Under the pieces are notes generated by a model, which was not told the DNA's origin, ran no database searches, and saw only the letters and a list, made by a program, of their open reading frames with translations. The position numbers were made by a program, and so were the translations under genes. From the UHGV virus genome UHGV-1352914: a stretch of 64,000 nt of DNA. The stretch is one strand, 5' to 3'. This DNA comes from a virus. Shown one piece after another: positions 1,249 to 64,000 of this stretch (the first letter of the stretch is position 1; the number at the start of each line of letters is the position of its first letter).

Positions 1249-1251
1249 ACC

Positions 1252-22307: not shown

Positions 22308-22340
22308 CCCCGGAGGGGTTATCCTCCGGGGATTTTTATT
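22308..22340 (+). terminator. rho-independent terminator ending first structural block
   Basis: CCCCGGAGG-GGTTAT-CCTCCGGGG then ATTTTTATT. Confidence 0.65.
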
Positions 22341-22351
22341 AAAATAATTTC

Positions 22352-22379
22352 TTGACAAGTAATAAAATTCTGATAAGGT
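22352..22379 (+). promoter_or_regulatory. promoter TTGACAAGTAATAAAATTCTGA-TAAGGT (same family as leftward early-arm promoters)
   Basis: -35 22352-22357, -10 22374-22379; matches minus-arm consensus TTGACAA(A)GTAATAAAATC. Confidence 0.5.
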
Positions 22380-22385
22380 GGTGGC

Positions 22386-23012
22386 ATGTCAGAGACATCA
22401 AACACCAAACAGAAGGACGGCCATAATGTTATTATGGTCGATAAGCAGAATGGATTAACCCTCGTTCTGGCCAGCCATAGGGTTCGCATTCCCAACGAGG
22501 AAATTAAAGGAAGGGTTGAAGACCTTGCGGTTATCGAGAACCCGTGCACCGTTACGACGAACCTTCCGGCTAAGAACGAATTCAGTTTTCGTGATGAATC
22601 CGTAGAAACATCGGAAGCAGTTGAGAAGGCATTCGACGACGCATGCCTAGAAGAAAACCAACTGTTCTGCCCTATCTGTGGAGGCCTACTAAGAGAAGAA
22701 CATCGCGGCAACTACGTGTTCGTAGAGTGCATGAGTTGCTCGCTGGCCGTGCAGGGGAGTGATGACGATGACCCGGAGACAGCCTGTGAAGAGGCATGGA
22801 GAGAGGCTCGATTCTTCCTCGACAGTTGTCCTCCGGTTCTGCGTCTTCAACCCGGCGATAAGTTGCATTTTATCGACAGGCCTCTTAAATATCAGTATTA
22901 CGCCGTAGTTACGGACGTTGATGTGAAGGATAGCTGGATAAGGACCGACAAGGGTTCATGTCGCCCTGACGACGTGCTTAAATGGCCGTGGGAAATTAAA
23001 CAAGCAGAATAA
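22386..23012 (+). CDS. Zn-ribbon containing hypothetical protein
   Basis: 208 aa; CPICGG...CMSCS zinc-ribbon pair; ATG 6 nt after -10 of promoter 22352-22379 (leaderless). Confidence 0.5.
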   Translation: MSETSNTKQKDGHNVIMVDKQNGLTLVLASHRVRIPNEEIKGRVEDLAVIENPCTVTTNLPAKNEFSFRDESVETSEAVEKAFDDACLEENQLFCPICGGLLREEHRGNYVFVECMSCSLAVQGSDDDDPETACEEAWREARFFLDSCPPVLRLQPGDKLHFIDRPLKYQYYAVVTDVDVKDSWIRTDKGSCRPDDVLKWPWEIKQAE

Positions 23013-41700: not shown

Positions 41701-44700
41701 AGATGGAGAAGCAAGCCGTGGGCTGAAATGAATACCAAGGAGAAGACGTTTGCCGTTGCTTCCTATTTGTACAGCACGAGCATGGCCGCAGTGGAAGGAG
41801 CCACCGAAGAACTGGCAGACGAATTCCAAGAGTGGGCATTTACTGAACTGGTGAAGAACGGAGAAATCTCCGAATCCTCTATTGCCACTACTGACCAAGT
41901 GATTAGCGGTGCTATAAAGACTGCTTTCCTTGGGGGTATCGGCGGCTACGTTGGTAGCCAGTTAGCTGGTGAAGGGAACATACGTTTCCAAACCGAAGCC
42001 GCTCCCACCCTTGATGTAAAGGATGCTACTTCCATACTACCGGATATTACGAAAGATGCGAGCAACATCATCGAGGAAACGGGCAAAGCCATTACCAAGG
42101 ATAATGTACCGGAAAGCTTGGTAGAAACCGGAAAGAGGGTTATCGAGATTGCCGGGGAGAAGGGGGATGCCGCGGAAGTTGCCCGCGAATGGGTGGACAA
42201 ATCCATTGCCCATGAAAGTCTGGCAGTCTCCGATGAAACCCGCAAGGCATGGGTGGAAGGCGCAACCCGTATGGGCATCAGCAATTTCACCCAGTTCCGC
42301 AACCTAGTTGAACGGGCCTCCGAAATATATACCTACGAGGGTAGTGCCGCGGCAAGCTCATTCATGGCAGAAGCCATTAACGACCTGCCCAATACCCTGT
42401 CATTCCCAAATAAGGAAAACCTCGACACCATGCGCACCATGCTTTCGGAGGCCCTTGATGCTATGGGAGACAGGGTTCAGGTTATCGAAGTAGACGACGA
42501 CCTGTCCATCATTACTACAGGGGACGAGGACCTCGATGCCGCTCTTCACGTCATTAACGGATTGACGGAACCCACGGCTACCACGGAACCCAAGGAATCC
42601 CCGACTACCGCGGAACCCACGGCTACCGCGGAACCCACGGCTACCGCGGAACTCACGGCGCGGAAGGAGAGGGACCAAGCCATTGCCCCCGTCACTAACA
42701 TGGTAGATACGGGAGTAGTTACCCCCGAAGCCGTGGAAACCGTGGATACCTTGGATGCCGCCATTACTTCGTTCGACCCCAACACTGGGGCATGGCTTTC
42801 ATCCGGTTCACCTCTTGACCGCGGAACCAAGCTCGTCTCCTTGAACGAGATGACCGGGATTAACGCCCCGCTGGTTACGAGCAACACGGGAGAAACCATT
42901 GTCGTCTCTCCGCACGCAAGCATGTACAACATGGGTGAGGGAGGGACACCCAGCACCAAGTGGGGGGATAGGGTCTCCGCTCTCAATCTCCCCTCTGACG
43001 GGACGGGCGTAAATGCCTACGGCATCCTTTCGGACCTTCGCGTCAAGGCATCTCCTGCACAGGCCGCGGCCATTGACGGAGTGCTCCGCGCATTGCATGC
43101 CGCTGGTTTGGACGTGGCTATCCGAGCCACCAATGCTCCTGCCAATATAGCCTCCCCCGCCAGTATCACGTATAAGAACGGAACAGACGGGAAGCTCGTC
43201 GGCGGCGTCATTGACCTGTACATGGACCGGGACAATGTGATTGAGAGCGTAACGGGAACAGTACTGCATGAGGCCATCCACCTCATTGACCGTCATCTTC
43301 GTGCCACTAACGCGGACTACTCCCAGCGGATGGACAAGATTAGAAGCGCAGTTGCGGAGAACTATAATCAAATCATTGATAGCCTCACTGCTATGTATGA
43401 AGCTAGCGTGGACATCAATGAGATGAATGCCATCGCCGCGCTTGCCTCCGACCTCAACTATGGTCTCCGTGGCCCGGACGAATTTGCCAGTGTTGCGTTC
43501 TCCAATCCTGTCATGAACTTCATGATTGCGGAGGTGAGCGGAGACAATGTAACCCTCACGGATTTGGCTCGCTATGCCGAAGCGGCTGGGGGCAGGAGAC
43601 CCGTTCATGTGCGCCTCATTGAATGGCTTAAGGATTTGATTAGGGATGTGCGGCAAACTGCGGACGACATGGATGGAACCACCGCCGCCAAGAATGCGGC
43701 TGAATGGGATTCCTATGTGGACCGCGTCGCGGACATAACCCCCGGCAAGTGGTTCGACATGCCTCGCACTCCGTCATGGAAAGTAGACGATACGGACTAC
43801 ACCATGAGCCGTGAGGTAGATTATTTTAACCCGTTGGCCTATGAGACCGACATGACCCAAAGACTGTCCTTCGGTCTGGGCGCAGAGATTATCGGTACGA
43901 ATGCCGGGAACTGGGTAACCAGTGTTAAGAACGTATGGCAAGGCGTGTCTAAGGGCTGGGACAAAGCTGGCATCAATGTTAAGTCCGAGGAACAGAAGCT
44001 GATTGTGCTGGAACAAATGACCAACGTGAATGCGGCGTATGAACGCAGTATTAAACGCATTGGCAAAATCGGCGATATGCTTCAACGCCGTGCGGATAGT
44101 CTGGGCTGGGATGCCACGACGCGAAAGAAATGGAGCAAATCCATTCTCGATATGTCGGGGAATATGGACAACGATATTGACCCTGAAACTGTTGCACGCA
44201 TTAACGCAGAGGCCCAAGCAGAAGTTCGCCAGCACGAACAGACCCGCGACTTCCGTATCGCGTTGGCTAAGAAGACCGTTACCGATGCCGTCAATAGGCA
44301 CGCGGAAGCGGTGCGTCTGGCCAACTCCCTTGCGCTTAATAGTGAAGGGCGATTGGAAATCAATGAGATGATGCGCCGGATTAAAGACATGAGCGTCAAG
44401 GGATATGGTGCTATGCTGGACAAGACGGTGGCTCTCCCCATGCTCTCCCAGCAGATTCACAATGTGCTCTCTGACCTTGGCTCTCGTATCTCCGCGACGG
44501 GGGATGCCAATCTGGAAACCACCTACTTTGGCCTCGCCCGTGATACGCAGAACTACCTTGCGGATATGATTAACGAGGTGGACAGTCCCTTCTCTATGGA
44601 TGAACTTCTGGACAGGTGGTCCAACCTTCGCAACGACTACCTCTATGCGGAGAGTACAAACCACCCCGCCATCGCTCCTATGATTCAGGACATCTCTAGG

Positions 44701-47700
44701 GCACGGGCCGAAGCTAAACAAATCATCCGGGAAGCCAACGATGATTTCCATGCCGCAACAAAGAGGGCAGGTGTAACTCGTGCTGGCGTAACTACCCCTG
44801 CTGGTTCCGTGTGGCTGAAACGGGACAACGCTATCCTCGATGCACGCCGTCAGAAACAGGCAGAGTATATGGCTAAGCGGGATGCCGCGGAACAATGGCT
44901 TCTGTCACAGGGAGTTGTAGGCCAGCTGGTCCACAATGTCATCGCCGATTCCCGTAAAGAAATTGCCGCAACGCAAATCTCTATTGCCAAGCTCATTGGA
45001 GATAGCCGTATGGCTAACAACGCCGCGGAGATGAATTATCTTCATCGCACCTACATGGCCGTAGGTCGTCATGCCGGAGACTTCACCCGGACGATGAAGG
45101 ACATCATTGCACACCCCAACGGAGAACTGGCGCAGAAATACGATGGCCTGACGAAGTTGTTGCAGGAAGCCGCAATCGCTCATGCCGAAGCGCACCAGAC
45201 AGAGTTGTCCGAAAACATAAGCCAAGTGCTGGACAACATGCAGGCATTGGCCGCGCTCCATGACGAGTTGAAACTTCCGCTGGTGTCAGCTCCCACGGGA
45301 GCCTCTTCGAATTATAAACTCCTGTTCGAAGGTGTAGCCAAGAACTACAGGACCAGAGAAATTCTTGACTTCATTCAGAACAACTTCGGCAGGGTTCAAA
45401 TGCTTGCGGACCTGCGGGATGGCCACAACATCAGTGCCATGTATAATAAGGCCATGAGCATGATAGCACAGGCTGACTATCGCACGAAGTCAAAGATGGC
45501 AGAGATGAAAGAAACTCTGGACATGAAAGCCAGAGATAGTTTCCTCGCCGATGTCTTCTCCAGCCTTCCGGGAAACACGATTGCCGACAAAATCGGCGGC
45601 CTTGAATCCCCGGCATCCGTGGCTTCCGAAGTGAACAAGGCCATCCCCACTATCCCGACTTCGGCCATTGACCAGATATGGAACGCTCCGAATATGAATG
45701 CCGCAGAACGACTGGACAAGACGCTCAATCTTCTCCGTGGTCAGGCGGGCATTCTCATGGGGGCGAACAATATGGGCAACGTCATCTCCGCTACCGACTT
45801 GAAAGTGTTGCAATATCCGGAACTCTCCCGTCTTGCGGTGAACGATGCCATGAAGGCCATTGACGAAGTGCTGACCAAGAAGAGGACGAATGAAGATGCG
45901 CTGGCCCAGCGGAAACGCTTGCCCGAATGGCAGAGGAAAGCTATGTATGAACTTAGTGACCTCACCATTGGGGATGCCATTGGGACATTGCAGAATACCA
46001 TATCCATGCAGTCGAAGATTGCCGTGAACCAGTTGCTTGCTGACGAGTACGCCACCGTGCTCAAGGCACAGGGTGTAGTCGTACCCCCGGATTCCGCGAG
46101 CCGTACCCCTGATATGGTGGAAATCTCCTTGAAGAATACGAAGAATGCGTTGAACGGATTGTATGCCGACAAGGATGTAGCCGATGCACTCTATCACATC
46201 TACAGGCCAAGCGACGACATCATGAACAGTCGGACGGACGACTATAAGAAGGTGCGCAAGTACTGGCAGAAGTCCGGCAAGGGTCAAGAATGGTGGAGTA
46301 AGGCGGGTGGCTTGGCTAACCTTTCTGTCTTAATAGCTAGTCCTAATTCCACGTTACGTAACTTATATGGTACAGTAGCTCAAATGACCCATGCGGGTGC
46401 ACTTCCATTCACGGGGAGTAAAGACATCGCAAACCTTGTCGGGGACTGGGTCCAGTTGCGTAAGTTGTGGTGGCTATCACAGGGCAAGGACCTTGGTTCA
46501 CAGGCTTCCGCAGATAGACTGCTGGCCGCGGAAGACAGGTACAACGAGAAGATTCGCTACTGGCAAGAGCTTGGTCTGCTGGACGCAGGTCAAGGGGAGT
46601 TCCTGCGCAACGTCTGGAAGTCTGACGAGTTCAGTAAGATGGCAGGAGAATTTGAAGAAGTGAATGAAGATTCCTTCTTCAAACTCGCCGAAGCTCTGAA
46701 CGAGAAACAGGAACGGACGAAGGGCGAGGTGGCTAAGGATGCCGCCAAGATGGCGGGCAAAGTCGTAGCATGGCCCGTCAAAACGATGGCCTTCGCCTAT
46801 GGCTTGCCGGACGCGGCGGCCAAGATTGTTCTCTTCACTAACCAGAGAGCGATTGCCGATACCCAATTAAAGGTACAACTGGCACGGGCGAAAGGCAAGG
46901 CCAACCCCAATGCGCGGGACCAGATACTCCTTGACGCGAGCCAGACTGACCAGAGTTGGAATGCGTATGTGGATAGGTATACTGCCCACATGGTGAAGAG
47001 CTTGCTCCCCACGGGTTCGCGTACTCCTTCGTGGGTGAAAACCCTGAATATAGTTGCGGCTCCGTTCTTCATGTTCCAGTACCATACCGCCCAGTCCGTA
47101 GTCTACAACCTTGGCCACGCCATAGGCGAAGGGGTAGACGGTGTGTGGGCTATCAATAACGGCATGAAGAAGGAGGGGGCTTACCTCTTGGGACGCGCTT
47201 TCGTTCGCATCGCTGGTTCCGTAGGAACTATTTCTGCAACCTCTGCGGTCTCTTCCTGGGTTGCCCGACAGATTATCACCAGTGTCTTGGGAGATGACGA
47301 TGACCGTAAAATCATTGACGACGCGGAAGTCATGAGGAAGCTGGCAGACAGTGGGCTAATTCCCGACTATGATAAGTTCGGGGACTTGATTGGCATCATA
47401 GATATGAAGCGGCATGAGTTCGAGTATTTGAACCTTGAATACATGAACCCGTTCAAGACCATCAAGGTGTTAGCCAAAACCCTGCCCAGCCTCTTCATGG
47501 ATATGGATGTGGACAAGTGGGGGATGAACAAGGTCGCCGAACTGAAAAACCTGCTGGAAAATACGGTGCTCGAAGAATCCCTCCTTCTGAACGCCGCTTC
47601 TGAATTGTTTAATGAGGAAGACTTCAATTACAAGCATAGCCTCTCAGGTGATGAAAGTGTCAACGTTCTCCCGGCAGTAGGCAACGCAATCCTGTTGGCC

Positions 47701-48402
47701 GCAGGACTGAACCCCTCGTTCGGCAGTGGACATACATGGCAAGTCCTTGAACGATTCGCGACGGTTGCCAATAAAAAGATTCCCTTCTACGGCTGGGCAG
47801 TCAAGTCAGGTAAACAAGCGTTTAGCGATACACCTGACATGAGTGGCGCGGCATACGGGTTACAGTCCTTGGGTGCGGGCCTCCGTCGTCCGAAGGATTT
47901 GACCGAAGCCCTTGCCGCCGGGTTAAAGAATGCCAACGCGGCGGTCACTAAGTCGAAGCGAATGAGCATTCTGCGTCCGGACTTCTACAAGAGAATGGAA
48001 TCCGGGATGGATGTGGAACTCATGGAAGCCGTGGAAACCGCGGATGCCGTGAAGAATTTCACCAAGCTAGTCAATAGTGTCCGGTTCGTTACGGAAATTA
48101 CAAACATGCTTGACCCGTCCATCCGTTCGGAAGTTCTGGCCTCCGTGATTGAGAGTTCCGGTATGAGTGCCAAGACCTACGGCGCGGCCATGCAGGGCAT
48201 CATGCCCTACGTCATTAGCCCGCAAGCAGGACGTGAAGCTATCGCGAAGCTCAACCGTGAATTGCAGAAGTCTAATACCACGGACGAGGGCAAACGCCTA
48301 ATCGAAGAGCAGAAGCAACTCATTATCAACCTCATGCGGAAGGGTAGCATTCCGATTGATGGGGCATTGAGTACAGAGGAAATTCATAATCGGATGAAGT
48401 AG
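38737..48402 (+). CDS. giant 3221-aa virion-associated/internal (ejection-type) polyvalent protein; function unresolved
   Basis: uninterrupted 9.67-kb ORF; Ala-rich, coiled-coil-rich; HExxH zincin-like motif GTVLHEAIHLIDRH; TEPTA coding repeats 42566-42660; own promoter 38657-38684. Confidence 0.6.
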   Translation: MAIDFSTANMSDFAPTSASSIAREQRAAERHATWQETQKQKQEDRAQKALDREQRLAEKKQTRAEKAAGATAEFDDYVFKSIDDFQKKQTEQADRARNVEWETKSRAHTEQGWKTTAEKADIDVLNKGNRGFTFEGIDYMKDYVDRGEDALVDLKAAARGDSDAIKKLTNNTGIVAVSSSELSPQHPAFLSRFGFGMGEDGNPVVTEKFLAIAADRNRNAKAVAKSIANTMEKARKDYLNSHLDVGTGKPKAEAIETAPIAYTAEEIESIINTIRREDIDNYRAAKSLYTKHRAASTENVQKKTPSQTNVGELGVGEFSDSAPSFTGNVFAELANLSKSPSKMFRLVRDYGDYLSRNGDIYIPGHQTSKKEKPVEDRIREQIEAADKIVRRLEEDYTGLPYLELRDAILNPEAAASTLLSLVPNADMDAIRARAEVLAKDLRRKKDRPLTFETDEQIGMSEAILEAVATRFPGVPKSTLYQAGVTNLIQGYVAKATPRGTLMDAVNGAMANYRSTAGQIADVLTFQPGDSVGKTSDPLSTMEWRKGTRRGTWEYGVPGGPSFDVGPERLKEYMAQYHIESTRDALNSLSHAARMGDLGVGRGSLFAYNPHTKEVDTNATLELNPNALYDNKLMDKSIEALRASGADEGLINRTIEKFQNLRTKSAQELVKDNIALDETLGTLRDTWLGSGMRFNPVWTETMKHLDKYLSFKNFYNEQKEAGKSDEDILSAWQEKGQAHINPILRGFQIGTHKAIDLGTGAAYGALLFAQNAVGSRAAMEHTRTLWDQLNKKQEAEAELVRGNIIADYTAEIANLGYQMVATAGAGKIGGLAGRALERTALTKFARAMANVAARRAEALVPAARPGLAGRLSGTIQRNLNNLAALSLERAGAGAGVNLTIISQVAPNAYSDIFYTIYDREMEGKEATAENTNRAQSIASRHALFGAALVSTGSTLINNRAGMDSFMRKVVGAKNLRGQSPVQTLEQKMARWRSKPWAEMNTKEKTFAVASYLYSTSMAAVEGATEELADEFQEWAFTELVKNGEISESSIATTDQVISGAIKTAFLGGIGGYVGSQLAGEGNIRFQTEAAPTLDVKDATSILPDITKDASNIIEETGKAITKDNVPESLVETGKRVIEIAGEKGDAAEVAREWVDKSIAHESLAVSDETRKAWVEGATRMGISNFTQFRNLVERASEIYTYEGSAAASSFMAEAINDLPNTLSFPNKENLDTMRTMLSEALDAMGDRVQVIEVDDDLSIITTGDEDLDAALHVINGLTEPTATTEPKESPTTAEPTATAEPTATAELTARKERDQAIAPVTNMVDTGVVTPEAVETVDTLDAAITSFDPNTGAWLSSGSPLDRGTKLVSLNEMTGINAPLVTSNTGETIVVSPHASMYNMGEGGTPSTKWGDRVSALNLPSDGTGVNAYGILSDLRVKASPAQAAAIDGVLRALHAAGLDVAIRATNAPANIASPASITYKNGTDGKLVGGVIDLYMDRDNVIESVTGTVLHEAIHLIDRHLRATNADYSQRMDKIRSAVAENYNQIIDSLTAMYEASVDINEMNAIAALASDLNYGLRGPDEFASVAFSNPVMNFMIAEVSGDNVTLTDLARYAEAAGGRRPVHVRLIEWLKDLIRDVRQTADDMDGTTAAKNAAEWDSYVDRVADITPGKWFDMPRTPSWKVDDTDYTMSREVDYFNPLAYETDMTQRLSFGLGAEIIGTNAGNWVTSVKNVWQGVSKGWDKAGINVKSEEQKLIVLEQMTNVNAAYERSIKRIGKIGDMLQRRADSLGWDATTRKKWSKSILDMSGNMDNDIDPETVARINAEAQAEVRQHEQTRDFRIALAKKTVTDAVNRHAEAVRLANSLALNSEGRLEINEMMRRIKDMSVKGYGAMLDKTVALPMLSQQIHNVLSDLGSRISATGDANLETTYFGLARDTQNYLADMINEVDSPFSMDELLDRWSNLRNDYLYAESTNHPAIAPMIQDISRARAEAKQIIREANDDFHAATKRAGVTRAGVTTPAGSVWLKRDNAILDARRQKQAEYMAKRDAAEQWLLSQGVVGQLVHNVIADSRKEIAATQISIAKLIGDSRMANNAAEMNYLHRTYMAVGRHAGDFTRTMKDIIAHPNGELAQKYDGLTKLLQEAAIAHAEAHQTELSENISQVLDNMQALAALHDELKLPLVSAPTGASSNYKLLFEGVAKNYRTREILDFIQNNFGRVQMLADLRDGHNISAMYNKAMSMIAQADYRTKSKMAEMKETLDMKARDSFLADVFSSLPGNTIADKIGGLESPASVASEVNKAIPTIPTSAIDQIWNAPNMNAAERLDKTLNLLRGQAGILMGANNMGNVISATDLKVLQYPELSRLAVNDAMKAIDEVLTKKRTNEDALAQRKRLPEWQRKAMYELSDLTIGDAIGTLQNTISMQSKIAVNQLLADEYATVLKAQGVVVPPDSASRTPDMVEISLKNTKNALNGLYADKDVADALYHIYRPSDDIMNSRTDDYKKVRKYWQKSGKGQEWWSKAGGLANLSVLIASPNSTLRNLYGTVAQMTHAGALPFTGSKDIANLVGDWVQLRKLWWLSQGKDLGSQASADRLLAAEDRYNEKIRYWQELGLLDAGQGEFLRNVWKSDEFSKMAGEFEEVNEDSFFKLAEALNEKQERTKGEVAKDAAKMAGKVVAWPVKTMAFAYGLPDAAAKIVLFTNQRAIADTQLKVQLARAKGKANPNARDQILLDASQTDQSWNAYVDRYTAHMVKSLLPTGSRTPSWVKTLNIVAAPFFMFQYHTAQSVVYNLGHAIGEGVDGVWAINNGMKKEGAYLLGRAFVRIAGSVGTISATSAVSSWVARQIITSVLGDDDDRKIIDDAEVMRKLADSGLIPDYDKFGDLIGIIDMKRHEFEYLNLEYMNPFKTIKVLAKTLPSLFMDMDVDKWGMNKVAELKNLLENTVLEESLLLNAASELFNEEDFNYKHSLSGDESVNVLPAVGNAILLAAGLNPSFGSGHTWQVLERFATVANKKIPFYGWAVKSGKQAFSDTPDMSGAAYGLQSLGAGLRRPKDLTEALAAGLKNANAAVTKSKRMSILRPDFYKRMESGMDVELMEAVETADAVKNFTKLVNSVRFVTEITNMLDPSIRSEVLASVIESSGMSAKTYGAAMQGIMPYVISPQAGREAIAKLNRELQKSNTTDEGKRLIEEQKQLIINLMRKGSIPIDGALSTEEIHNRMK
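42566..42660 (+). repeat. 18-bp coding tandem repeat (GCGGAACCCACGGCTACC) x~4 inside giant gene
   Basis: encodes TEPTA(T/E) units. Confidence 0.8.
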
Positions 48403-49496: not shown

Positions 49497-49584
49497 ACCC
49501 GCAACGACATCATTCTGTTTGGACTGTAAGTTGTTTGGGTTCTAAGCGAAAACCCCGGAAGAGAATTCCTTCCGGGGTTTTTGT
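49497..49584 (+). ncRNA. candidate ~85-nt small RNA between convergent gene blocks
   Basis: predicted TSS ~49500 from orphan promoter; GAACCC...GGGTTC stem then terminator hairpin; no ORF. Confidence 0.25.
49553..49584. terminator. bidirectional rho-independent terminator at convergence point
   Basis: CCCCGGAAG-AGAATTC-CTTCCGGGG flanked by AAAA upstream and TTTTTG downstream. Confidence 0.65.
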
Positions 49585-56663: not shown

Positions 56664-57017
56664 TTAGAAGAGGGGGCGATTGAATCCCATGTCTTCAAGG
56701 CAACGGGCGAGGCGATTTGCTTCCAGCTGATGCCGCTTCAAGCGGCGGCGTATGATATCAATACCCCACTCTACCAGCAACTGGAAGACAAACCAGCCCA
56801 CGATAATGACACACCATGTAAGGTAAGATATGAGGAACTCTCCAGTGGTAAGGAGGTAGCCGAGACATACGAGTGCACTCACGAGGGCGACAATGTCCAC
56901 TACCGAATGAAGATGTTCCACGAGGCTCCACAGGGTGTGAAGCCTATCGGCTCGTCCGATGTGGTGGAGACATTGCTTGCGGAAGATGACGACGTTGGAT
57001 TCTTTTTCGGAGGTCAT
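56664..57017 (-). CDS. small membrane protein
   Basis: 117 aa with two hydrophobic helices; class-II upstream motif. Confidence 0.4.
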   Translation of the reverse strand: MTSEKESNVVIFRKQCLHHIGRADRLHTLWSLVEHLHSVVDIVALVSALVCLGYLLTTGEFLISYLTWCVIIVGWFVFQLLVEWGIDIIRRRLKRHQLEANRLARCLEDMGFNRPLF

Positions 57018-57047
57018 ACTATAGAGCTATGTGAGAGTTCTAGGGGT

Positions 57048-57653
57048 TCAACGGAGTACGAGCTTCACGGTTTCCAGATTCAAATCCTCCTGCCATTTGT
57101 TGCTAGTGAACTTCACCATGCAGGGAAGGAAGAAACGTTCTGCCAGCTTGCGAATCTTTATGGAATTGAGATTGTTCATGGCTTCCTTATTAGGTGTGAG
57201 GAATCGGAAGCGCATATAGGTGAGGCTACCGTCAACCATGAAGTCCACCGCCCCCGCTTCTTGTGCGATACGAAGACCTACTTCCTGCCAGTTCTGATTA
57301 ACCACCGCCGTAAAGTGCTTTGCCAGTTCTATGGCATCACCTACAGTCAGAGCCGCCATTTCCGCAAGGTGCCACACCGAACCGTTCCACTTCAACTTGT
57401 GGAGCCGGACAATGCACGCACCATTGTGTGTGCGTTCCAATTCGATTGCGTAGGGCCGCATGTACGGCTTAACATACACCGTTCCTTCTCCGTCCCACTC
57501 GGAGGGCTTATCTATCCTGTGGGATACTTCCCCCTCCCTAAAGGAAAAGATTGCAGGCTGAAGTTTGTTGATTCGGTTTGTGAGTTTGAGCCATTCCGTG
57601 CGGGAAAGTTCATCACGTTTCTTGCCAGTAATATCGATGTCAAATGCGGTCAT
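57048..57653 (-). CDS. hypothetical protein
   Basis: 201 aa; class-II upstream motif at 57654-57690. Confidence 0.4.
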   Translation of the reverse strand: MTAFDIDITGKKRDELSRTEWLKLTNRINKLQPAIFSFREGEVSHRIDKPSEWDGEGTVYVKPYMRPYAIELERTHNGACIVRLHKLKWNGSVWHLAEMAALTVGDAIELAKHFTAVVNQNWQEVGLRIAQEAGAVDFMVDGSLTYMRFRFLTPNKEAMNNLNSIKIRKLAERFFLPCMVKFTSNKWQEDLNLETVKLVLR

Positions 57654-57707
57654 AATTTTGTAGTGTTCTTTGAGTGTTCTAATGGGTAGGGTAGCTGGGG
57701 CCGGGGG

Positions 57708-58457
57708 TTAGGCCCTGTAGCTGGGGAGGGTGGAAACGGTTGTGTGGTTATAGTCGAAGCGAGGGTATTGTACACCAGTCAGGGCTTTAAGGTCTTGCTT
57801 CAATGTCTTCACTTGCTCTTCCACTTTAATGGCATGTGCAAAATAGCAACGCATATAATAGGAATCGCAAAGGCGGTAGTTAGAATCCTCAATTTCTTGA
57901 AGCTTGGTATGGAGGCGGGCCATATCCTTGAAGATTCCTTCAATGAATTTCTCCATGTCCCTCCCGGTGACAATCCGCTTCTGCCTTTGCGTCAGCTCAT
58001 TGACGTCAAAGTTAAAGGAAATATCTACGGCATCAAACATGCCTGGGAGGATATGATGAAACACCACTTGCGGCCATGAATAGTGACTTCTATCAAGGTA
58101 GGCACGGATTTTAATGTCCGCATCGACGCTTTGTACGATTGCGGCGGCCAGACAGTCATCCATCATCCGTTCTACTCGGACGTTATAGACCTTGCCTTCA
58201 AACCGGGGGAGGCGTTCGGCCACTAGTCTCAACATACGGAAGGTGATAAGGGTTGCCATGCCATGAGCGGCATTATCTCGGATTACCTGTTTCAGGTCAT
58301 GCCCCATATTTTTCACCGGGATGACGTAGTCATTCTGATTATTCTTCATGAGGTCGTCACGTGTTTTAGCTACGGCGGTATCGATAGCGGCATTTGCCCG
58401 TTCAATGAGGGCATCAATGGCGGCAACGTTGGTAGGGATTTCGATTTGATTGTTCAT
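57708..58457 (-). CDS. hypothetical early protein (MNNQI start)
   Basis: 249 aa; preceded by full promoter/hairpin/RBS repeat unit 58458-58581. Confidence 0.45.
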   Translation of the reverse strand: MNNQIEIPTNVAAIDALIERANAAIDTAVAKTRDDLMKNNQNDYVIPVKNMGHDLKQVIRDNAAHGMATLITFRMLRLVAERLPRFEGKVYNVRVERMMDDCLAAAIVQSVDADIKIRAYLDRSHYSWPQVVFHHILPGMFDAVDISFNFDVNELTQRQKRIVTGRDMEKFIEGIFKDMARLHTKLQEIEDSNYRLCDSYYMRCYFAHAIKVEEQVKTLKQDLKALTGVQYPRFDYNHTTVSTLPSYRA

Positions 58458-58581
58458 TGTTTTGTTTCTTTCTATTGTTTTATTGTTAATTGGTTAGGGT
58501 TCTGTGGGGATTCATCCCCGTTGATGATTTTAGGTTAGCAGATTTTATTACTTTGTCAAATAGTTTTTTAGGGTGGTGTAA
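58458..58581 (-). promoter_or_regulatory. early-arm repeat unit (stop box, TTGACA-N16-TAACCT, GC hairpin, conserved RBS)
   Basis: -35 = 58554-58559, -10 = 58532-58537, hairpin GGGGATTCATCCCC 58507-58520 (+ coords); RBS box CAATAGAAAGAAACAAAACA then ATG. Confidence 0.5.
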
Positions 58582-58947
58582 TTATTCTACGACATTGTCC
58601 AGATTAAAGGCCCGGCGGGCGGCTTTTCCCATGCGGTCTATCTCCCTGATTGCCACCAGTTCACCGTATTCACTTATGAGGGTATAAGCTACTGGCCGTA
58701 CCCCCTCATAAACTAAAAACAAATCAATAACCTCCGGGTCATAGGTGGCTCCCTTCCACATGTGCTTCTTGTCCATGTTCTCAATAGCGGGCATGACGTC
58801 TTCCGGAGATATTCCGAAAACGGCGGCTACCGGGTGGACATGTACCTGTGTTTCGGCGTAAAACACCAATGAGAGAATGCCGGAACCGCTTTCATATAAT
58901 GTCCATGTCAGGCTTTCGTTGTCTTTCAGTTCAATTTGATTGTTCAT
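58582..58947 (-). CDS. MNNQI-family small early protein, member A
   Basis: 121 aa; MNNQIELKDNESLTWTLYESGSGILSLVFYAET...ARRAFNLDNVVE; paralogous to 60558 and 62576 genes. Confidence 0.5.
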   Translation of the reverse strand: MNNQIELKDNESLTWTLYESGSGILSLVFYAETQVHVHPVAAVFGISPEDVMPAIENMDKKHMWKGATYDPEVIDLFLVYEGVRPVAYTLISEYGELVAIREIDRMGKAARRAFNLDNVVE

Positions 58948-59047
58948 TGTTTTATTTCTTTCTACTGATTTGTTGGTTGGTTTTACTTTAGCAGATTTTA
59001 TTACTTTGTCAAATAGTTTTTATTTGTATGACAAAGGCATATCTTAT
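58948..59047 (-). promoter_or_regulatory. early-arm repeat unit (hairpin-less variant)
   Basis: TGTCATACAAA box, TTGACA (+ 59007-59012 revcomp)-N16-TAAAGT, conserved RBS box. Confidence 0.45.
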
Positions 59048-59476
59048 TTACTTTGAGAAAAGGACAAGGAGGGGTATAGGAATATCCAAAAAGTTTCTAT
59101 CTGTGTAAAGGGTAAAAGAATCAGAATCCGTGCCGTAGTATTGTACGGCTCTTTCCCGGAATACTCTAATAGAGTTGCTTCTCACATACGGTTCGGCTTC
59201 TGGCTTGCAGGTGGGAACGGTGGTTGTGCAATCGGAAAGACGAGCACGGAACCTTTCTGTATTTTCAATCAAGTCCCTGACTTTGTATGCGTTAAACTCT
59301 ACATGTTTAATACTAACGGCATTCTGAATACTGACGTGTTCATGTATCTCATGCTCGTCCGGGTAGTAGTCATAGGTGCGCACAATGCGGCACTTTTCAC
59401 CCCGGTTATTAACGGCGTTTGATGAAACGTCTTGCGCTTCCGTAGTTCCCCATACTTCAATCTTATTTTCTTTCAT
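59048..59476 (-). CDS. hypothetical early protein
   Basis: 142 aa; preceded by repeat unit 59477-59566. Confidence 0.4.
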   Translation of the reverse strand: MKENKIEVWGTTEAQDVSSNAVNNRGEKCRIVRTYDYYPDEHEIHEHVSIQNAVSIKHVEFNAYKVRDLIENTERFRARLSDCTTTVPTCKPEAEPYVRSNSIRVFRERAVQYYGTDSDSFTLYTDRNFLDIPIPLLVLFSK

Positions 59477-59566
59477 AGTATTATTCTTTCTATTGTTTTG
59501 TTGGTTGGTTTTACTTTATCAGATTTTATTATCTTGTCAAATAGTTTTTATTTGTATGACAAAATC
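59477..59566 (-). promoter_or_regulatory. early-arm repeat unit (hairpin-less variant)
   Basis: TGTCATACAAA box; TTGACA at + 59535-59540 (revcomp). Confidence 0.45.
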
Positions 59567-59956
59567 CTATGGGACAATTTGCAGATAGGAGACGTATTGA
59601 GAATTAACCTGCTGAGTATCTCCCGCTTGGTGTACATTTTCCATGCCGAAAGGGAACCATGCTATTTTATCAGGGCAGGATAATCTTTCAAGGAGGGTGT
59701 GCGGGGGTTCATCCTTTGAGGAAATAAGCATAACGCCATAGGTTCCAATCCGATACAAGACAATGTCATCTTTCTGGCACTTGCTCCCCGGCTTGGCATA
59801 CCGGGACAGGAGAAGCAGACTACTAGCGCATTCTGACGGCTCCAGAATATAATCCTTTTGGTGCAGGGCGTTGAAGCTCCATATAGTGAGGCGCATCTTA
59901 CCACCCGTTACCATTTCCGTTTCTATTCTGATATGTAAATCTGATATTTCTTTCAT
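59567..59956 (-). CDS. hypothetical protein
   Basis: start moved to second Met (MKEISDLH) to avoid 80-nt overlap with upstream gene; no repeat unit upstream. Confidence 0.35.
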   Translation of the reverse strand: MKEISDLHIRIETEMVTGGKMRLTIWSFNALHQKDYILEPSECASSLLLLSRYAKPGSKCQKDDIVLYRIGTYGVMLISSKDEPPHTLLERLSCPDKIAWFPFGMENVHQAGDTQQVNSQYVSYLQIVP

Positions 59957-59972
59957 GGCCTGTAGCTTGTGT

Positions 59973-60503
59973 TTAGATTCTTCCAGTTGCCAAGGTTTGC
60001 CCGTGCATCGTTCGAATCCAGAAGTTAATGATATCACGGGGACGGGGGGATACATTGTGGCCGTTCATATCGGTGAAAGTATGTCCCGTTTCTACCAAGC
60101 CAATCAGGTTGCGGAGGGTACTGCGTAGGGTTTGATTCCCCTTCAGATACACCTTTACCCGGCCACCGTCTGTAAGCTTAAGTTCAAGATAGCAGTTAGT
60201 CATCCGGCAACCCGGATTTATCCATGACAGGACGGCCCCCATAAAGTGGGGCAGGACATAGTATTTTACGCAGGGACAGGGGGAACCGAAAGCCGGGGTG
60301 GCAGAATGAAGGGCAACCTGCTGGCCTTCAACGATGTGGGCAAGATAGTAGTCTTTTTCCCACTCTTTAATGTTTTCAATGACTTCCGGTGCAAGGCTTT
60401 CATCTTCACCGCACGCCAAGTAATTGAGGGCATAGGTGGGAATGTGATGAATAAGGGCATAGTCCGATACTTTAAGCACTTCTGGTTTGGTTGTAGTCTT
60501 CAT
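59973..60503 (-). CDS. hypothetical early protein
   Basis: 176 aa; partial repeat unit (stop box plus RBS) upstream at 60504-60557. Confidence 0.4.
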   Translation of the reverse strand: MKTTTKPEVLKVSDYALIHHIPTYALNYLACGEDESLAPEVIENIKEWEKDYYLAHIVEGQQVALHSATPAFGSPCPCVKYYVLPHFMGAVLSWINPGCRMTNCYLELKLTDGGRVKVYLKGNQTLRSTLRNLIGLVETGHTFTDMNGHNVSPRPRDIINFWIRTMHGQTLATGRI

Positions 60504-60557
60504 AATATGGTTGCTTTCTATTTGTTTATTGTTAGTTAGTTTGTTAGGGCGGTGTAA

Positions 60558-60887
60558 TTATTCAATAGGGAGCGGGAAAAATTGAGAATGAGAAGCTTTA
60601 GCTACTGGCTGGCAGAACCGTTGGTTTAAATACTGGTTAATTTCCTTTACGTCATAAATGCACCAGTCTCCTAACTCCTTCTCATTCACCGCCTGCCACA
60701 AGCGCACAATGTCAGAATCATCCAGTGCGGGCAGGGCGTCCCACGGGTATATGTTAAGCAGGGCGGCAATGGGGCGTGCATGCGAGGGTGATTTTGCGAA
60801 GAAGATAAGGGACAGAAGGCCGTCACCGTTTTCATAGAACGCCCATGCCGGGCTTTCATTGTCATTTAATTTGATATGCTTGCTCAT
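60558..60887 (-). CDS. MNNQI-family small early protein, member B
   Basis: start at Met of MSKHIKLNDNESPAWAFYENGDGLLSLIFFAKS directly after conserved RBS box. Confidence 0.5.
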   Translation of the reverse strand: MSKHIKLNDNESPAWAFYENGDGLLSLIFFAKSPSHARPIAALLNIYPWDALPALDDSDIVRLWQAVNEKELGDWCIYDVKEINQYLNQRFCQPVAKASHSQFFPLPIE

Positions 60888-61024
60888 TGTTTTATTTCTT
60901 TCTATTGTTTTATTGTTGCGGGGATTCATCCCCGCTGGTTAATGTTAGTTTATCGGATTTTATTATCTTGTCAATTAGTTTTTTAGGGTGGTGTAACTTT
61001 TCAAGGGAGAATTGTTGTAACTGC
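60888..61024 (-). promoter_or_regulatory. early-arm repeat unit with hairpin GCGGGGATTCATCCCCGC
   Basis: hairpin 60917-60934; TTGACA at + 60968-60973 (revcomp). Confidence 0.5.
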
Positions 61025-61327
61025 TTAATGGTTATACACAATCTGTACACCCGCCTCCTCAAGGGCAAGGCATAGGGGGTCGGAGATAAAGGCGCGGCTT
61101 ATCACCATTTCATCCGGGCGGTAGTCCGCAATGCCGATTGTCCGCATTTCCCCGGATTCCCGGTCCCTGACAAGTAGGCTTGCCTTGCTTCCGGTTGCCG
61201 CCGCAAGGGCCTCAATTAACTCTATCTCTTCATCATGGTGGGATGATAGTTGGAATAGATAGGGGCGTGTTTCCCGGATATGGGCGGCTAAAATATCGAT
61301 TGCACGATTCTTTTCGTCTTCATTCAT
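61025..61327 (-). CDS. hypothetical early protein
   Basis: 100-aa acidic ORF; short repeat unit upstream. Confidence 0.4.
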   Translation of the reverse strand: MNEDEKNRAIDILAAHIRETRPYLFQLSSHHDEEIELIEALAAATGSKASLLVRDRESGEMRTIGIADYRPDEMVISRAFISDPLCLALEEAGVQIVYNH

Positions 61328-61398
61328 GGTCTTATTTTCTTTCTATTGTTTTATTGTTGCTTTCGTAGAGCGGCGTAACTTTTCAGAAGGGCCGGGGG

Positions 61399-61827
61399 TT
61401 AATATATCTCTTCCAACTCTTCCCATTCCCCCGGCCGGGTGAAGAATGATTTAAGGTTTGCGTACTCATGGCATGCGCCCGTGTACTTGCAATATGAATC
61501 CATATTGTATTCCCCCGTATGTTCATCGTATGCGGGCAAGCCCATTTCATCACAGAAGTCACGATAGGAACCATAATCTGATTTACATAAACAGGCAAGC
61601 ACGTCATAAGCGGTAGGGGTCTTGTGCCTATCCGCATGGGACTGATAGAACACGATGAATATTTCCCGCCTTTCTCCCTTCCGGGGGTCTTTCCGGTGTA
61701 GGACAATTTCCCATGTACTATGTTGCTTGTCATCCCATAAGGGCGTGTACATGCCCTTATACTTTCCGGTGATTCTGATTCCACAATTTTTGAGGAACTT
61801 CTTGGCATGGTCATCGTAAATGCTCAT
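61399..61827 (-). CDS. hypothetical early protein, Cys/His/Tyr-rich
   Basis: 142 aa; stop codon embedded in 9-bp-stem inverted repeat. Confidence 0.4.
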   Translation of the reverse strand: MSIYDDHAKKFLKNCGIRITGKYKGMYTPLWDDKQHSTWEIVLHRKDPRKGERREIFIVFYQSHADRHKTPTAYDVLACLCKSDYGSYRDFCDEMGLPAYDEHTGEYNMDSYCKYTGACHEYANLKSFFTRPGEWEELEEIY

Positions 61828-61904
61828 AATCTTATGTCTTTCTATTGTTTAGTTTTGTTGGTTTTGGTTTTATAGGGTAGCGTGACTTTTCAGAAGGGCC
61901 GGGG

Positions 61905-62456
61905 TTAAACCCGGCTGACTAGCCGCAATACGAGGGCAAGGCCATCGTCATAGGTGCGCACCATGTGCCGCCCTGCCTCGTAGGTCTCGCATTCAGCGGG
62001 GGTTAAGTAGTAGCGGTGGATGAAAAAGGCGGGGGCGGGCCGTCCATATCTCTCATAATCCCATGAGGCAGGGGCTTGTGCGTCATCCCATTGCAACCAT
62101 GCCACCGGGACAAAGCCGTAGTGAGTGTATAGGGCTACGAGCTTGTCAGTGGATAGGGCAAAGAGCCACTTGCCCCCGTTGCCATGAATCGAACCGAAAA
62201 CGTCATCCAGCGGGACTACCGCACCCGGATTTTTGACTATGGTGGCAATTTCCCCGGTAGATAGGATTGCCCAGACCGCCGTTACACGCCCGCTGTTGCT
62301 ATCTCCCTCTACAAAGGCAAACAGGCCCGCGCCCTCGTAAAAGTCCGGGGAATGTACGTCTACCGCCCCCCGGATTCCGGCCGGGTGAAGGGATTTGAAG
62401 TGATTAGCGAGGCCGGTAAAGGTGGTTACGGGCAATTTGATGATTTGATTCTTCAT
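61905..62456 (-). CDS. hypothetical early protein
   Basis: 183 aa; stop overlapped by GCCGGG-GTTAAA-CCCGGC hairpin. Confidence 0.4.
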   Translation of the reverse strand: MKNQIIKLPVTTFTGLANHFKSLHPAGIRGAVDVHSPDFYEGAGLFAFVEGDSNSGRVTAVWAILSTGEIATIVKNPGAVVPLDDVFGSIHGNGGKWLFALSTDKLVALYTHYGFVPVAWLQWDDAQAPASWDYERYGRPAPAFFIHRYYLTPAECETYEAGRHMVRTYDDGLALVLRLVSRV

Positions 62457-62575
62457 ATTGTGTTCCTTTTTAGTGGGGGGTTATGCGGGGGTGATTCCCC
62501 CGCCGGATGATTTTAGTTTATCAGAATTGCTTACCTTGTCAAATGTTTTTTGTTTTTGTATGACACAATCATAAC
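62457..62575 (-). promoter_or_regulatory. early-arm repeat unit with hairpin GCGGGGGTGATTCCCCCGC
   Basis: hairpin 62485-62503; TTGACA at + 62537-62542 (revcomp); TGTGTCATACAAA box. Confidence 0.5.
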
Positions 62576-62935
62576 TTATTCATCCGCAATGTTGAAGGCG
62601 CGGCGGGCGGCGTATCCCATGCGTTCAGTCTCCATGATAGTCTCTACCACCCCCGTGCGAGATACCTGCGTATAAGCAACAGGGCGGACGGCCTCGTCCC
62701 TCAAAAAGCGGTGGATATCGGCAACGTCATAGTTAACCCCATCCCACATGTGCACCATGTCCAGGTCTGCGAGGGCGGGGGCAACGTCCCAGGAAAAAAT
62801 GTCAAAAATTGCCGCAACAGGGCGGGCGTGTGCGATTGTTTCCGCAAATAATACGAGGGACAGGACGCCCGCGCCGTTTTCGTAAACCGCCCATGTGAGA
62901 GTTTCATCATCCTTTAATTTGATTTGATTGTTCAT
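62576..62935 (-). CDS. MNNQI-family small early protein, member C
   Basis: start at MNNQIKLKDDETLTWAVYENGAGVLSLVLFAET; C-terminus GYAARRAFNIADE like member A. Confidence 0.5.
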   Translation of the reverse strand: MNNQIKLKDDETLTWAVYENGAGVLSLVLFAETIAHARPVAAIFDIFSWDVAPALADLDMVHMWDGVNYDVADIHRFLRDEAVRPVAYTQVSRTGVVETIMETERMGYAARRAFNIADE

Positions 62936-63067
62936 TGTTTTGTTTCCTTTCTTGTTGGTGGTTTGTTGTCCGGGGGTTGCCCCCGTTGATGCTTTCACTT
63001 TAACCTATTTTATCTTGTTGTCAAATGTTTTTTGTTTTTGTATGACACAATCGTAATTCCCTGACTC
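62936..63067 (-). promoter_or_regulatory. early-arm repeat unit with hairpin CCGGGGGTTGCCCCCG
   Basis: hairpin 62970-62985; TTGACA at + 63019-63024 (revcomp); TGTGTCATACAAA box. Confidence 0.5.
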
Positions 63068-63451
63068 TTAAAGGGTAAAGACCGCGCCGTATTCTTTTGT
63101 GCCGTTTCCAGACCCCCGGAAATAGTCATCAGCGGCAAATGGTAGAGAGTCAACGATAAAACGTAGCTCGTACTCAATGTCATCCGCTTTATCAGCGGGC
63201 AACCCCGCCCCATAAGTCACGGATAGTAAAATCTCGGCGGGGTCTGCGTCATCAGTACCAAGGGGGCCGCAAGTGAGGGCGTCAACGCTCTCTAAGTAGT
63301 TAACGTCTCCTAAGCGGCGGTCATAGACGATAGCGAGGCGGGCGCGGGTGATTGTGTCCCTCAGTTTAGCGGCGGCGGCTCTCACGAGTTTCATCTTATT
63401 TTCCCGGTCTCTTGGTGCGGGGGCGTCATTGTTAGCGATTTGATTGTTCAT
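63068..63451 (-). CDS. hypothetical early protein (MNNQI start)
   Basis: start at MNNQIANN after conserved RBS box; first gene of leftward block next to putative origin. Confidence 0.4.
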   Translation of the reverse strand: MNNQIANNDAPAPRDRENKMKLVRAAAAKLRDTITRARLAIVYDRRLGDVNYLESVDALTCGPLGTDDADPAEILLSVTYGAGLPADKADDIEYELRFIVDSLPFAADDYFRGSGNGTKEYGAVFTL

Positions 63452-63540
63452 GATTTTATTCTTTCTTTTAGTGTTCTCATTTCCGGGGGGTTGCCCCCGT
63501 TGATGATTGCAATTTAACACACCCGCCGGGGGCGTCAAGT
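63452..63540 (-). promoter_or_regulatory. early-arm leader unit with hairpin CCGGGGGGTTGCCCCCG
   Basis: hairpin 63483-63499 plus conserved RBS; no clear TTGACA (first cassette next to origin-like region). Confidence 0.35.
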
Positions 63541-63582
63541 GGTTTTCTTTCCGTTGCGTTGTAACTCGCTCATTATCTGCGT

Positions 63583-64000
63583 GTTATAATTGTGTCATAC
63601 AACTTCTCCGGTCTCCATTGCACCCCCGGATTCCCCGGTATCCGGTTCCCCGGTATCCGGTTCCCCGGTATCCGGTTCCCCGGTATCCGGTTCCCCGGTC
63701 TCTCTCTTATATATATATATAGTGTAGGAGACTTTTTGGCTTCTTTTGGTATCTTTTGGTTTTAGATTGTTCCATGTGGAACATTTTAGCAATTCTGATT
63801 CCCCGGTATCTGGATTCCGGGGGTTGTGGTGGATAGCAGGTGCAATGGATTCCGGGGTTGCCGGGGGTGCAATGGCTTCAACCGTTACCGGGGATTCCGG
63901 GGGTGCAAGATAGTTAAGGATTCTTAACTATTAAGGATTCTTAAACATTCCCCTTGTAAGTCTGGACTAACTTTTTAAGCCTAGCCTAACATTGTAAGTG
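63583..64000. other. putative replication origin / genome-terminus region
   Basis: non-coding; iterons, (TC)3(TA)6 at 63701-63721, three TTTTGG tracts at 10-bp phase 63733-63765, GGTGCAATGG x2, GATTCCGGGGG x3, TTAAGGATTCTTAA x2. Confidence 0.4.
63631..63700. repeat. iteron-like 15-bp direct repeat TTCCCCGGTATCCGG x4.5
   Basis: four perfect head-to-tail copies 63631-63690 plus partial. Confidence 0.8.

Follow-up and report, generated by a model that had tools for sequence, protein, structure and literature searches.

GC hairpins behind the early promoters of UHGV-1352914

The virus genome UHGV-1352914 was studied here as a single stretch of 64,000 nucleotides (nt), referred to as the window, in which GC-rich hairpins stand between promoter and ribosome-binding site (RBS) in the early gene cassettes. 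A check of open reading frames (ORFs) and strands indicated that the early genes, as all genes throughout 49.6-63.5 kb, are encoded on the minus strand; the sequences quoted for these hairpins in a first-pass annotation of the same DNA are the reverse complement of the functional strand. Between 58.5 and 63.6 kb, seven copies of a sigma70-type promoter, TTGAC[AG]-16-TAWNNT, were found; in relatives there are about 100. On the minus strand, in the 5' to 3' direction, the linker carrying them runs in the order A-rich tract, promoter, hairpin, leader, Shine-Dalgarno sequence and ATG. The window promoters are as follows.

63511..63538, minus strand: early promoter 1, TTGACG-16-TAAATT; first after the genome end, kept in relatives
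62997..63024, minus strand: early promoter 2, TTGACA-16-TAAAGT; A-rich tract and TGTCATACAAA upstream
62515..62542, minus strand: early promoter 3, TTGACA-16-(TGa)TAAACT
60947..60974, minus strand: early promoter 4, TTGACA-16-TAAACT; TTACACCACCCTA motif 5' of the promoter
59513..59540, minus strand: early promoter 5, same family, without hairpin; 36-nt unstructured leader, heads the gene at 59476
58985..59012, minus strand: early promoter 6, same family, without hairpin; heads the gene at 58947
58532..58559, minus strand: early promoter 7, TTGACA-16-TAACCT; upstream of the conserved gene 57708-58457, encoding a protein of 249 amino acids (aa)

The 16-nt spacing and the -35 hexamer are constant across the ~100 promoter copies, and the -10 hexamer is TAAAnT in nearly all of them, with TAACCT and TAATTT as variants and a frequent TGn extension. 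An A-rich tract, CATACAAAACAAAAAACTAG or CCCTAAAAAAGTAT, lies 5' of the -35 and corresponds to the AT-rich tract of the promoter-early stem-loops (PeSLs) discussed below. The -10 and the stem are separated by 11-12 nt, usually (G/A)AAATCATCCA, and the hairpin is followed by an A/C-rich, G-poor leader, then by a AGAAAGGA-like Shine-Dalgarno sequence and the ATG. Five of the seven window promoters lead into a GC stem of 5-7 base pairs (bp), beginning about 11-13 nt past the -10.

63484-63499, minus strand: hairpin 1, CGGGGG-CAAC-CCCCCG (CGGGGGCAACCCCCCG on the minus strand); starts 12 nt after the -10; -14.9 kcal/mol, z -3.15
62971-62985, minus strand: hairpin 2, CGGGGG-CAA-CCCCCG (CGGGGGCAACCCCCG on the minus strand); -11.8 kcal/mol, z -2.69
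62485-62503, minus strand: hairpin 3, GCGGGGG-AATCA-CCCCCGC (GCGGGGGAATCACCCCCGC on the minus strand); -16.6 kcal/mol for the whole leader, covariance model score 53.8 bits
60918-60935, minus strand: hairpin 4, GCGGGGA-TGAA-TCCCCGC (GCGGGGATGAATCCCCGC on the minus strand); -14.1 kcal/mol, z -5.55
58506-58519, minus strand: hairpin 5, GGGGA-TGAA-TCCCC (GGGGATGAATCCCC on the minus strand); -8.3 kcal/mol, z -2.03

The first-pass annotation had described six such units, the first from 58507; the window holds five, that hairpin starts at 58506, and their location between promoter and RBS was confirmed. When the leaders were folded, a check that the annotation had proposed, each of the five hairpins was the only structure of its leader, with minimum free energies of -8.3 to -16.6 kcal/mol and z scores of -2.0 to -5.5 against dinucleotide shuffles. 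The leaders outside the hairpin fold at 0 kcal/mol, and so do the two hairpin-free leaders. Hairpin 1 has an optional outer 4-bp helix, UCAU/AUGA, spanning 63477-63506. In the cassette of promoter 5, the orthologues in relatives bear a GCCACC-GGAAG-GGTGGC hairpin that is missing in the window. A minus-strand terminator scan detected no U-tract after any of the five hairpins, the downstream sequence being A/C-rich, and the hairpins of the relatives are alike in this respect. No Rfam match was obtained in 57000-64000 at E<=1.

The position of the hairpin is tied to the promoter in related genomes

The 249-aa protein (57708-58457) was used to find relatives and yielded 24 IMG/VR loci, at 76-84% identity and on contigs of up to ~70 kb, which together with the window make up a set of 103 promoters of the family (window plus L001-L024). 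A hairpin lies behind 99 of the 103, and its stem starts 11-13 nt past the -10 in 91 of these 99. The longest stem, a single one of 9 bp, starts at nt 8, so that the centre of its hairpin coincides with that of the others. Of the 103 promoters, 80 are followed by a perfect stem of 5 bp or more whose first base lies 7-16 nt past the -10, compared with 1.9 expected from the background hairpin density of the same DNA, which is to be read as enrichment and not as a count of independent events since the loci are related.

The early 121-aa protein had no relatives in IMG/VR, and megablast with 58-64 kb as query gave no match among 50,697 phage records. A looser DNA pattern scan (promoter plus AATCATC) returned the same clade only, plus chance matches in unrelated AT-rich contigs.

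Pairing is kept while the sequence varies

Some 40 stem/loop versions occupy the hairpin site in the window and the 24 loci. Most stems of the hairpin-bearing promoters (99/103) oppose a G-run to a C-run, as in GCGGGAG/CTCCCGC, GCGGGGG/CCCCCGC, CCGGG/CCCGG and CGGGGG/CCCCCG, and others are unrelated, such as GCCACC/GGTGGC and TCCCCGCCC/GGGCGGGGA. The loops measure 3-9 nt, with sequences including TGAA, AATCA, GGAAG, CCTTAT and AAG. One loop, ACAAG, is inverted to CTTGT between identical arms (GCGGGAG-ACAAG-CTCCCGC at L006 3181-3218 and L009 2183-2220 versus GCGGGAG-CTTGT-CTCCCGC at L001 7768-7805), and the G-run of the left arm varies in length from 5 to 9 (L005 6841-6880, L008 5148-5186). Loop inversion and G-run variation point to template switching or slippage at the palindromes, or else to assembly errors in homopolymers. 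CsrA-type GGA loops were considered and dropped, many loops being without GGA.

A plain MAFFT alignment of 53 leaders misregistered the stems, and RNAalifold predicted no pairs on it; it was replaced by a gap-free seed alignment and a covariance model. This model misses the most divergent stems, e.g. GCCACC and TCCCCGCCC, and matches promoter-proximal sites only, plus partial reverse-strand matches to the palindromic hairpins themselves. In its alignment, 95.5% of cells are paired, compared with 39-67% after a shift of the partner by 1-3 columns; two-sided changes (G-C to C-G, G-C to A-U) occur in 3 of 7 pairs, and the three central G-C pairs of the stem are almost invariant. Taken alone, these figures amount to moderate evidence, since the structure itself guided the alignment and its members are close orthologues or paralogues of one another. 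Whether G-U mismatches outnumber A-C mismatches was checked in order to tell the folding strand, and the cases were too few and mixed.

A distant relative, P0159 (L063), whose homologue of the 249-aa protein is 57% identical, provides stronger evidence than the covariance-model alignment. Three of its four early promoters have kept a hairpin in this position, built on new stems, and in two of these the C-run comes first (CCCC-AGCAA-GGGG and GCCCC-ATAAGC-GGGGC). In the orthologous cassette of the 142-aa gene, GCCACC/GGUGGC is replaced by GCCGCU/GGCGGC, that is, by an A-U to G-C exchange together with a C-G to U-G change.

Compensatory differences between the stems had already been claimed on the window alone, where they are thin: all stems share a GGGG/CCCC core and differ only in loops and in closing or outer pairs. 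The relatives make the case convincing, including the A-U to G-C exchange that a covariation analysis of related phages, as suggested in the first-pass annotation, was able to find. Taken together, the ~40 versions, the unrelated stems, the flips of polarity and the compensatory changes indicate that pairing is conserved and not sequence. The argument that kept pairing implies function is thus supported by 24 related loci and one distant relative, and the hairpin element is, by these comparisons, under selection for its structure.

Shuffled cassettes and their junctions

Clustering of the early proteins defined ORFan families (G, F, E, D, C, J, H, A and I) whose order and copy number differ among 25 genomes while the linkers remain constant. 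The two flanks of the hairpin reassort as well, giving chimeric stems such as CCGGG-AAGCC-CCCGG. One family of small early proteins (MNNQIKLKD.E.L.W..YENG...) has three paralogues in the window (62576-62935, 60558-60887 and 58582-58947, minus strand) and one or two in relatives. The 176-aa early protein (59973-60503) contains DUF6926, and the remaining early proteins have no Pfam match. On this comparative evidence, the ~100-nt linker, repeated between cassettes, provides the homology for their gain, loss, duplication and reordering.

A second intergenic motif was also recognized. Its core, (TGAAAAGT)TACRCCRCCCTA, is found at five sites of the window, all within the early region when the minus strand was scanned.

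58569-58579, minus strand: second motif core
60545-60555, minus strand: second motif core
60984-60994, minus strand: second motif core
61366-61376, minus strand: second motif core
61873-61883, minus strand: second motif core

The motif, (C)TGAAAAGTTACRCCGCCCTA or (C)TGAAWAGTTACRCCRCCCTA followed by an A-rich stretch, comes after most early-gene stop codons, whether or not a promoter follows; it is non-palindromic and present in many copies in L001-L024. Junctions that lack a promoter show no conserved hairpin when relatives are compared. The motif may act as a weak promoter (CTGAAA-15-TAAAAT), bind a protein or be no more than a recombination linker; together with the promoter and the hairpin, it makes up the junctions between cassettes.

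Two further pairings lie at stop codons.

61898-61915, minus strand: hairpin GCCGGG-TTTAAC-CCCGGC, the TAA stop codon of gene 61905-62456 lying within the loop
61390-61436, minus strand: 9-bp long-range pairing of GGCCGGGGG with CCCCCGGCC (arms 61390-61398 and 61428-61436), around the stop codon of gene 61399-61827

Both had been reported in the first-pass annotation, at 61888-61905 and with an arm at 61384, positions that are corrected here to 61898-61915 and 61390-61398. They do exist in the window and share a segment, TAACCCC(C)GGCCCTTCTGAAAAGTYACGC, but they are not conserved in relatives, which have a plain poly-C tract or nothing at these sites, lack the right arm of the 61898-61915 hairpin and show no covariation in the left arms. 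Poly-C tracts of 5-10 nt were seen in relatives between stop codons and the TGAAAAGTTAC motif (e.g. L001 ~7700, L010 ~3650, L014 ~60). In the window, it is the tract CCCC(C)GGCCC that creates both hairpins. They are peculiar to this genome and are not a second form of the conserved element; the 9-bp pairing is probably incidental.

Terminators elsewhere in the genome

The hairpins of the early linkers were also considered as intrinsic terminators; the lack of a U-tract, in comparison with the real terminators at 49549-49581 and 22307-22332, argues against strong intrinsic termination. The first of these real terminators, a perfect hairpin of 13 bp with AAAA on one side and TTTT on the other, lies between converging plus- and minus-strand modules; it is a bidirectional intrinsic terminator, from which it follows that the host uses canonical terminators. 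The second belongs to a plus-strand segment, 22307-22392, in which TCCCCGGAGG-GGTTAT-CCTCCGGGGA is followed by TTTTTATT and then by a copy of the early promoter family, TTGACAAGTAATAAAATTCTGATAAGGT, in the classic order of terminator then promoter. The -10 of this copy ends 6 nt before the ATG at 22386, which implies either a leaderless mRNA or a promoter overlapping the RBS.

The 3221-aa protein and other proteins outside the early region

A gene for a 3221-aa protein is located at 38737-48402 on the plus strand, beside structural genes. In sequence-level searches at E<=1 the protein had no match in Pfam (including the T7-type RNA_pol model), PHROGs, NCBIfam or the PDB chains, a set that presumably also contains the crAss-like phage polymerase; T7-like motif B and T/DxxGR patterns were not found, and tblastn of its C-terminal two-thirds (2133 aa) against the 50,697 phage records gave no match. 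It has an HExxH motif, VLHEAIHLIDRH, at about aa 1509-1520. Its homologues in ENA, Logan and JGI assemblies (120 listed of 400 matches) are 89-100% identical and belong to the same clade.

The best cultured-phage matches of the DNA polymerase A are 24-27% identical and come from Rhizobium, Pseudomonas, Enterococcus and Bacteroides phages, the listed records being of 33-64 kb. The putative endolysin contains a PG_binding_3 domain, which hints at a Gram-negative host.

Sequences around the promoters and at the genome end

TGTCATACAAA and an A-tract come before about half of the promoters, in the window at 59541-59565, 59013-59037, 62543-62567 and 63025-63049 on the minus strand. The copies at 59541-59565 and 59013-59037 form a TTGTCA-N17-TGACAA inverted repeat that includes the -35 hexamer, the left arm being GTGTCA in the copies at 62543-62567 and 63025-63049; this inverted repeat around the -35 may be an operator. 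An oppositely oriented copy, TATGACACAAT, lies at ~63587-63597, upstream of promoter 1. An unrelated low-GC viral contig (L026, IMGVR_UViG_3300026549_000256, minus strand, 78-3610) carries about ten tandem TTGACA-17-TATAAT promoters, each before a small gene; several have a common initial sequence, TAAATCATCAAAAGAAAGG, but no hairpin. The AAATCATC found after the -10 is shared with this contig and may be a favoured initial transcribed sequence.

The sequence upstream of promoter 1, at 63626-63699 and 63700-63900, contains repeats: the 15-nt unit CCGGTTCCCCGGTAT occurs in 4.9 tandem copies and is accompanied by a run of (TA)n, by repeats of TTTTGGTATC and by a repeat of 27 nt. In many related contigs the sequence breaks off 60-600 nt upstream of promoter 1, which fits a genome end there, and the region is probably the genome terminus or a packaging region. 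The contigs of the 120 listed homologues of the 3221-aa protein reach ~76 kb, with full-length genomes of ~70 kb.

Discussion

The reading that we favour, with a probability of about one half, is that the hairpin is a stem-loop that the early mRNAs carry close to their 5' end, within a composite promoter/hairpin/leader linker placed before shuffled ORFans, and that its role is protection of that end or insulation. The linker consists of an A-rich tract, a sigma70-type promoter, a GC stem-loop (5-9 bp, loop of 3-9 nt) ~5 nt from the predicted start, an unstructured leader, a Shine-Dalgarno sequence and the ATG. If the host RNA polymerase starts ~7 nt past the -10, the hairpin would be transcribed as the first structure of the mRNA, from about +2 to +7. 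As a clamp near the 5' end it could limit 5'-end-dependent decay enzymes, either RppH with RNase E, or RNase J; RppH and RNase E require single-stranded 5' termini, which accounts for the stabilising effect of 5' secondary structure (PMC3997798). The hairpin would also insulate the cassettes, by giving each an identical 5' end regardless of the gene. Among the candidates put forward in the first-pass annotation, the 5'-leader stem-loop is the one that fits best, given the fixed distance to the promoter, the place inside the predicted transcript and the tolerance of any loop.

Several points weigh against this reading. The start site is placed from promoter geometry only. On the same geometry, with stems beginning 11-13 nt past the -10, a start 6-9 nt past it would leave ~2-6 unpaired nt; a start at 7 nt would leave ~4-5 before the stem, a number that may already suffice for RppH, whose minimum is 2-3 (PMC3997798), and protection may then be partial. 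Which RNases the hairpin would face depends on the host. The hairpin is dispensable, being absent from 4 of the 103 promoters and lost in a window cassette whose orthologues have it. Most of the 103 copies come from close genomes and duplicated linkers; the fixed position is therefore partly inherited, and independent events are far fewer. Lastly, the closest published analogue, a Gn-loop-Cn stem-loop of a PeSL, behaved as a terminator when tested (PMC2839356).

PeSLs are mobile regulatory cassettes of the T4-type phages RB49/phi1, PST and nt-1 (Arbiol et al. 2010, PMC2839356; Comeau et al. 2014, PMC4122927). They combine a sigma70 early promoter, an AT-rich upstream tract and a stem-loop that is "frequently polyG followed by polyC", are repeated between the ORFans of hyperplastic regions, where they mediate modular shuffling, and fall into five positional classes of stem-loop, one of them downstream of the -10 (PMC2839356; PMC4122927). 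Since one such stem-loop cut lacZ expression as much as rrnB T1 did (PMC2839356), the main rival explanation is that the hairpins act as attenuators or terminators in the manner of PeSLs, partly stopping the upstream polymerase so that tandem transcription does not pile up downstream. The association of sigma70 promoters with Gn-loop-Cn sequences, the existence of the downstream class and the presence of up to seven tandem window promoters in 5 kb with no other terminator between them all speak for it. We nevertheless consider it unlikely, because the hairpin lies downstream of the start of its own cassette, whose transcripts it would stop equally, and because none is followed by a U-tract while the terminators found elsewhere in the genome are canonical; nor does attenuation give a reason for the fixed distance to the -10 that 91 of 99 hairpins keep. 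The intercistronic attenuator of the first-pass annotation thus retains its precedent in the PeSLs and loses ground on these features.

The variability of the loops, and the inversion of one of them, argue against sequence-specific recognition, whether of RNA or by a dimeric DNA operator. A protein-binding element in nascent RNA, either a boxB/nut-like antiterminator site or a target of some regulator of translation or decay by which the early genes are shut off, would be expected close to the promoter and, being a handle common to the early transcripts, on nearly all of them, as is observed here, and many loops are A-rich with an ACAA core, among them GACAA, which is the boxB loop of P22, and the GNRA tetraloop GCAA. 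The small GC stem, the A-rich loop and the location in nascent RNA near early promoters recall the lambdoid nut sites, whose boxB is bound by N. In those sites, however, the pentaloops are sequence-specific, boxA is present and the system acts on downstream terminators, whereas the loops considered here range from 3 to 9 nt, vary in sequence and in one case are inverted to CTTGT, the polarity of the stem is flipped in the distant relative, the early region has no terminators to override, and neither a boxA-like partner nor an Rfam match was found; such an element is quite improbable. A double-stranded operator for a dimeric repressor bound just past the start site would block early transcription from inverted repeats centred at ~+14, a classic roadblock position, and these are present at nearly all early promoters. 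It would have to accommodate arms that are wholly different between cassettes, whose spacing varies by 6 bp (loops of 3-9 nt) and whose polarity can flip, and the compensatory changes preserve complementarity and not any half-site sequence, so we regard an operator as very hard to credit.

The hairpin could also act in DNA as a structure-specific recombination site or hotspot for cassette exchange, comparable to the attC sites of integrons, its position in the leader being secondary: the ORFan cassettes are shuffled among relatives, the flanks of the hairpin reassort into chimeric asymmetric stems, one loop is inverted between its arms, and in RB49 one crossover was mapped within a PeSL loop, the authors speculating on a protein that recognises GGGG...CCCC (PMC2839356). 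Yet the ~100-nt conserved linkers suffice for ordinary homologous recombination, Pfam scans of most, though not all, ORFs showed no integrase or recombinase, attC sites are far longer than these stems, hairpin-free junctions with only the TTACRCCGCCCTA motif also separate shuffled cassettes, and the strict link to the promoter is left unexplained, which makes this proposal improbable. A broader version, in which the hairpins are structure-specific signals read by a phage factor, either as attC-like sites or as recognition hairpins for an activity of an ejected 3221-aa protein, is a long shot too; if true, it would explain at once why only pairing is conserved by every early promoter and why crossovers and loop inversion occur at hairpins.

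The first-pass annotation had also raised DNA hairpin promoters of the N4 type, and had itself regarded them as weakened by the lack of T7-like motifs in the 3221-aa protein. Such promoters would be extruded from supercoiled DNA and used by a virion RNA polymerase, here the 3221-aa protein. The N4 promoters P1-P3 are template-strand DNA hairpins upstream of the start, used by a T7-like virion polymerase without a host promoter; conservation in them extends to the 3-nt loop, which has a central purine, to stem bases and to the -17 to +1 region (PMC4496689). Likeness is found in the giant protein encoded beside structural genes, in the short GC-rich inverted repeats (stems of 5-7 bp, a 3-nt loop among them) at the early-gene end of the genome, and in stem bases that, where not conserved, vary as long as they pair. 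The hairpins of the window, however, lie downstream of a complete sigma70-type promoter in every case, and the same promoters head two window cassettes (genes 59476 and 58947) without any hairpin; their loops of 3-9 nt are free to vary, once by inversion, whereas N4 requires the conserved 3-nt loop (PMC4496689). The profile searches of the giant protein, which the annotation had recommended, have been run and gave no RNA_pol match in Pfam, PHROGs or NCBIfam; PDB sequences, the N4 mini virion RNA polymerase (2PO4/3C3L) among them, the T7 motifs and tblastn against phages likewise gave no polymerase signal at the sequence level. This candidate has become very improbable, and a tempting but wrong analogy is thereby removed from the giant protein.

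The early linkers extend the PeSL idea, so far described in T4-type myoviruses, to an unrelated lineage, in a phage clade that is abundant in public metagenomes and has no cultured relative. With ~40 hairpin variants at one leader position, these genomes offer a natural set for the effects of stem strength, loop and 5' distance on mRNA yield, and the variants could serve as ready-made expression parts.

Comparison with known systems

Stabilising 5' stem-loops, such as those of the ompA and papA 5' untranslated regions and of the B. subtilis aprE leader, place a stable hairpin at or near the 5' end, followed by an unstructured leader and an RBS (PMC3997798), an arrangement predicted for the early linkers as well. 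Their effect depends on pairing and not on sequence, and in the early linkers too it is the pairing that is kept. The T7 gene 10 leader hairpin is a further 5'-terminal stabilising stem-loop. The early linkers differ in that their 5' end is deduced and in that the stem probably comes after ~4-5 unpaired nt, a longer stretch than in the classic cases.

The likeness to PeSLs extends over the whole linker: a strong sigma70 early promoter, an AT-rich tract, an adjacent stem-loop that is often polyG-loop-polyC, and a Shine-Dalgarno sequence and start codon on the 3' side, in a conserved unit of ~100 nt that recurs between small ORFans, the cassettes being inserted, deleted and reordered among close relatives. 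In contrast to the T4-type phages, this is a ~70-kb lineage with a family A DNA polymerase and a giant 3221-aa protein, in which no T4-like genes were seen. Its stem-loop is nearly uniform at a predicted ~+5, whereas the PeSL classes are mostly inside or upstream of the promoter; it has no U-tract; and a second, hairpin-free junction motif, TTACRCCGCCCTA, exists beside it. As the lineage is not T4-like and its hairpins keep to nearly one position, these linkers are PeSL-like by architecture and not by descent.

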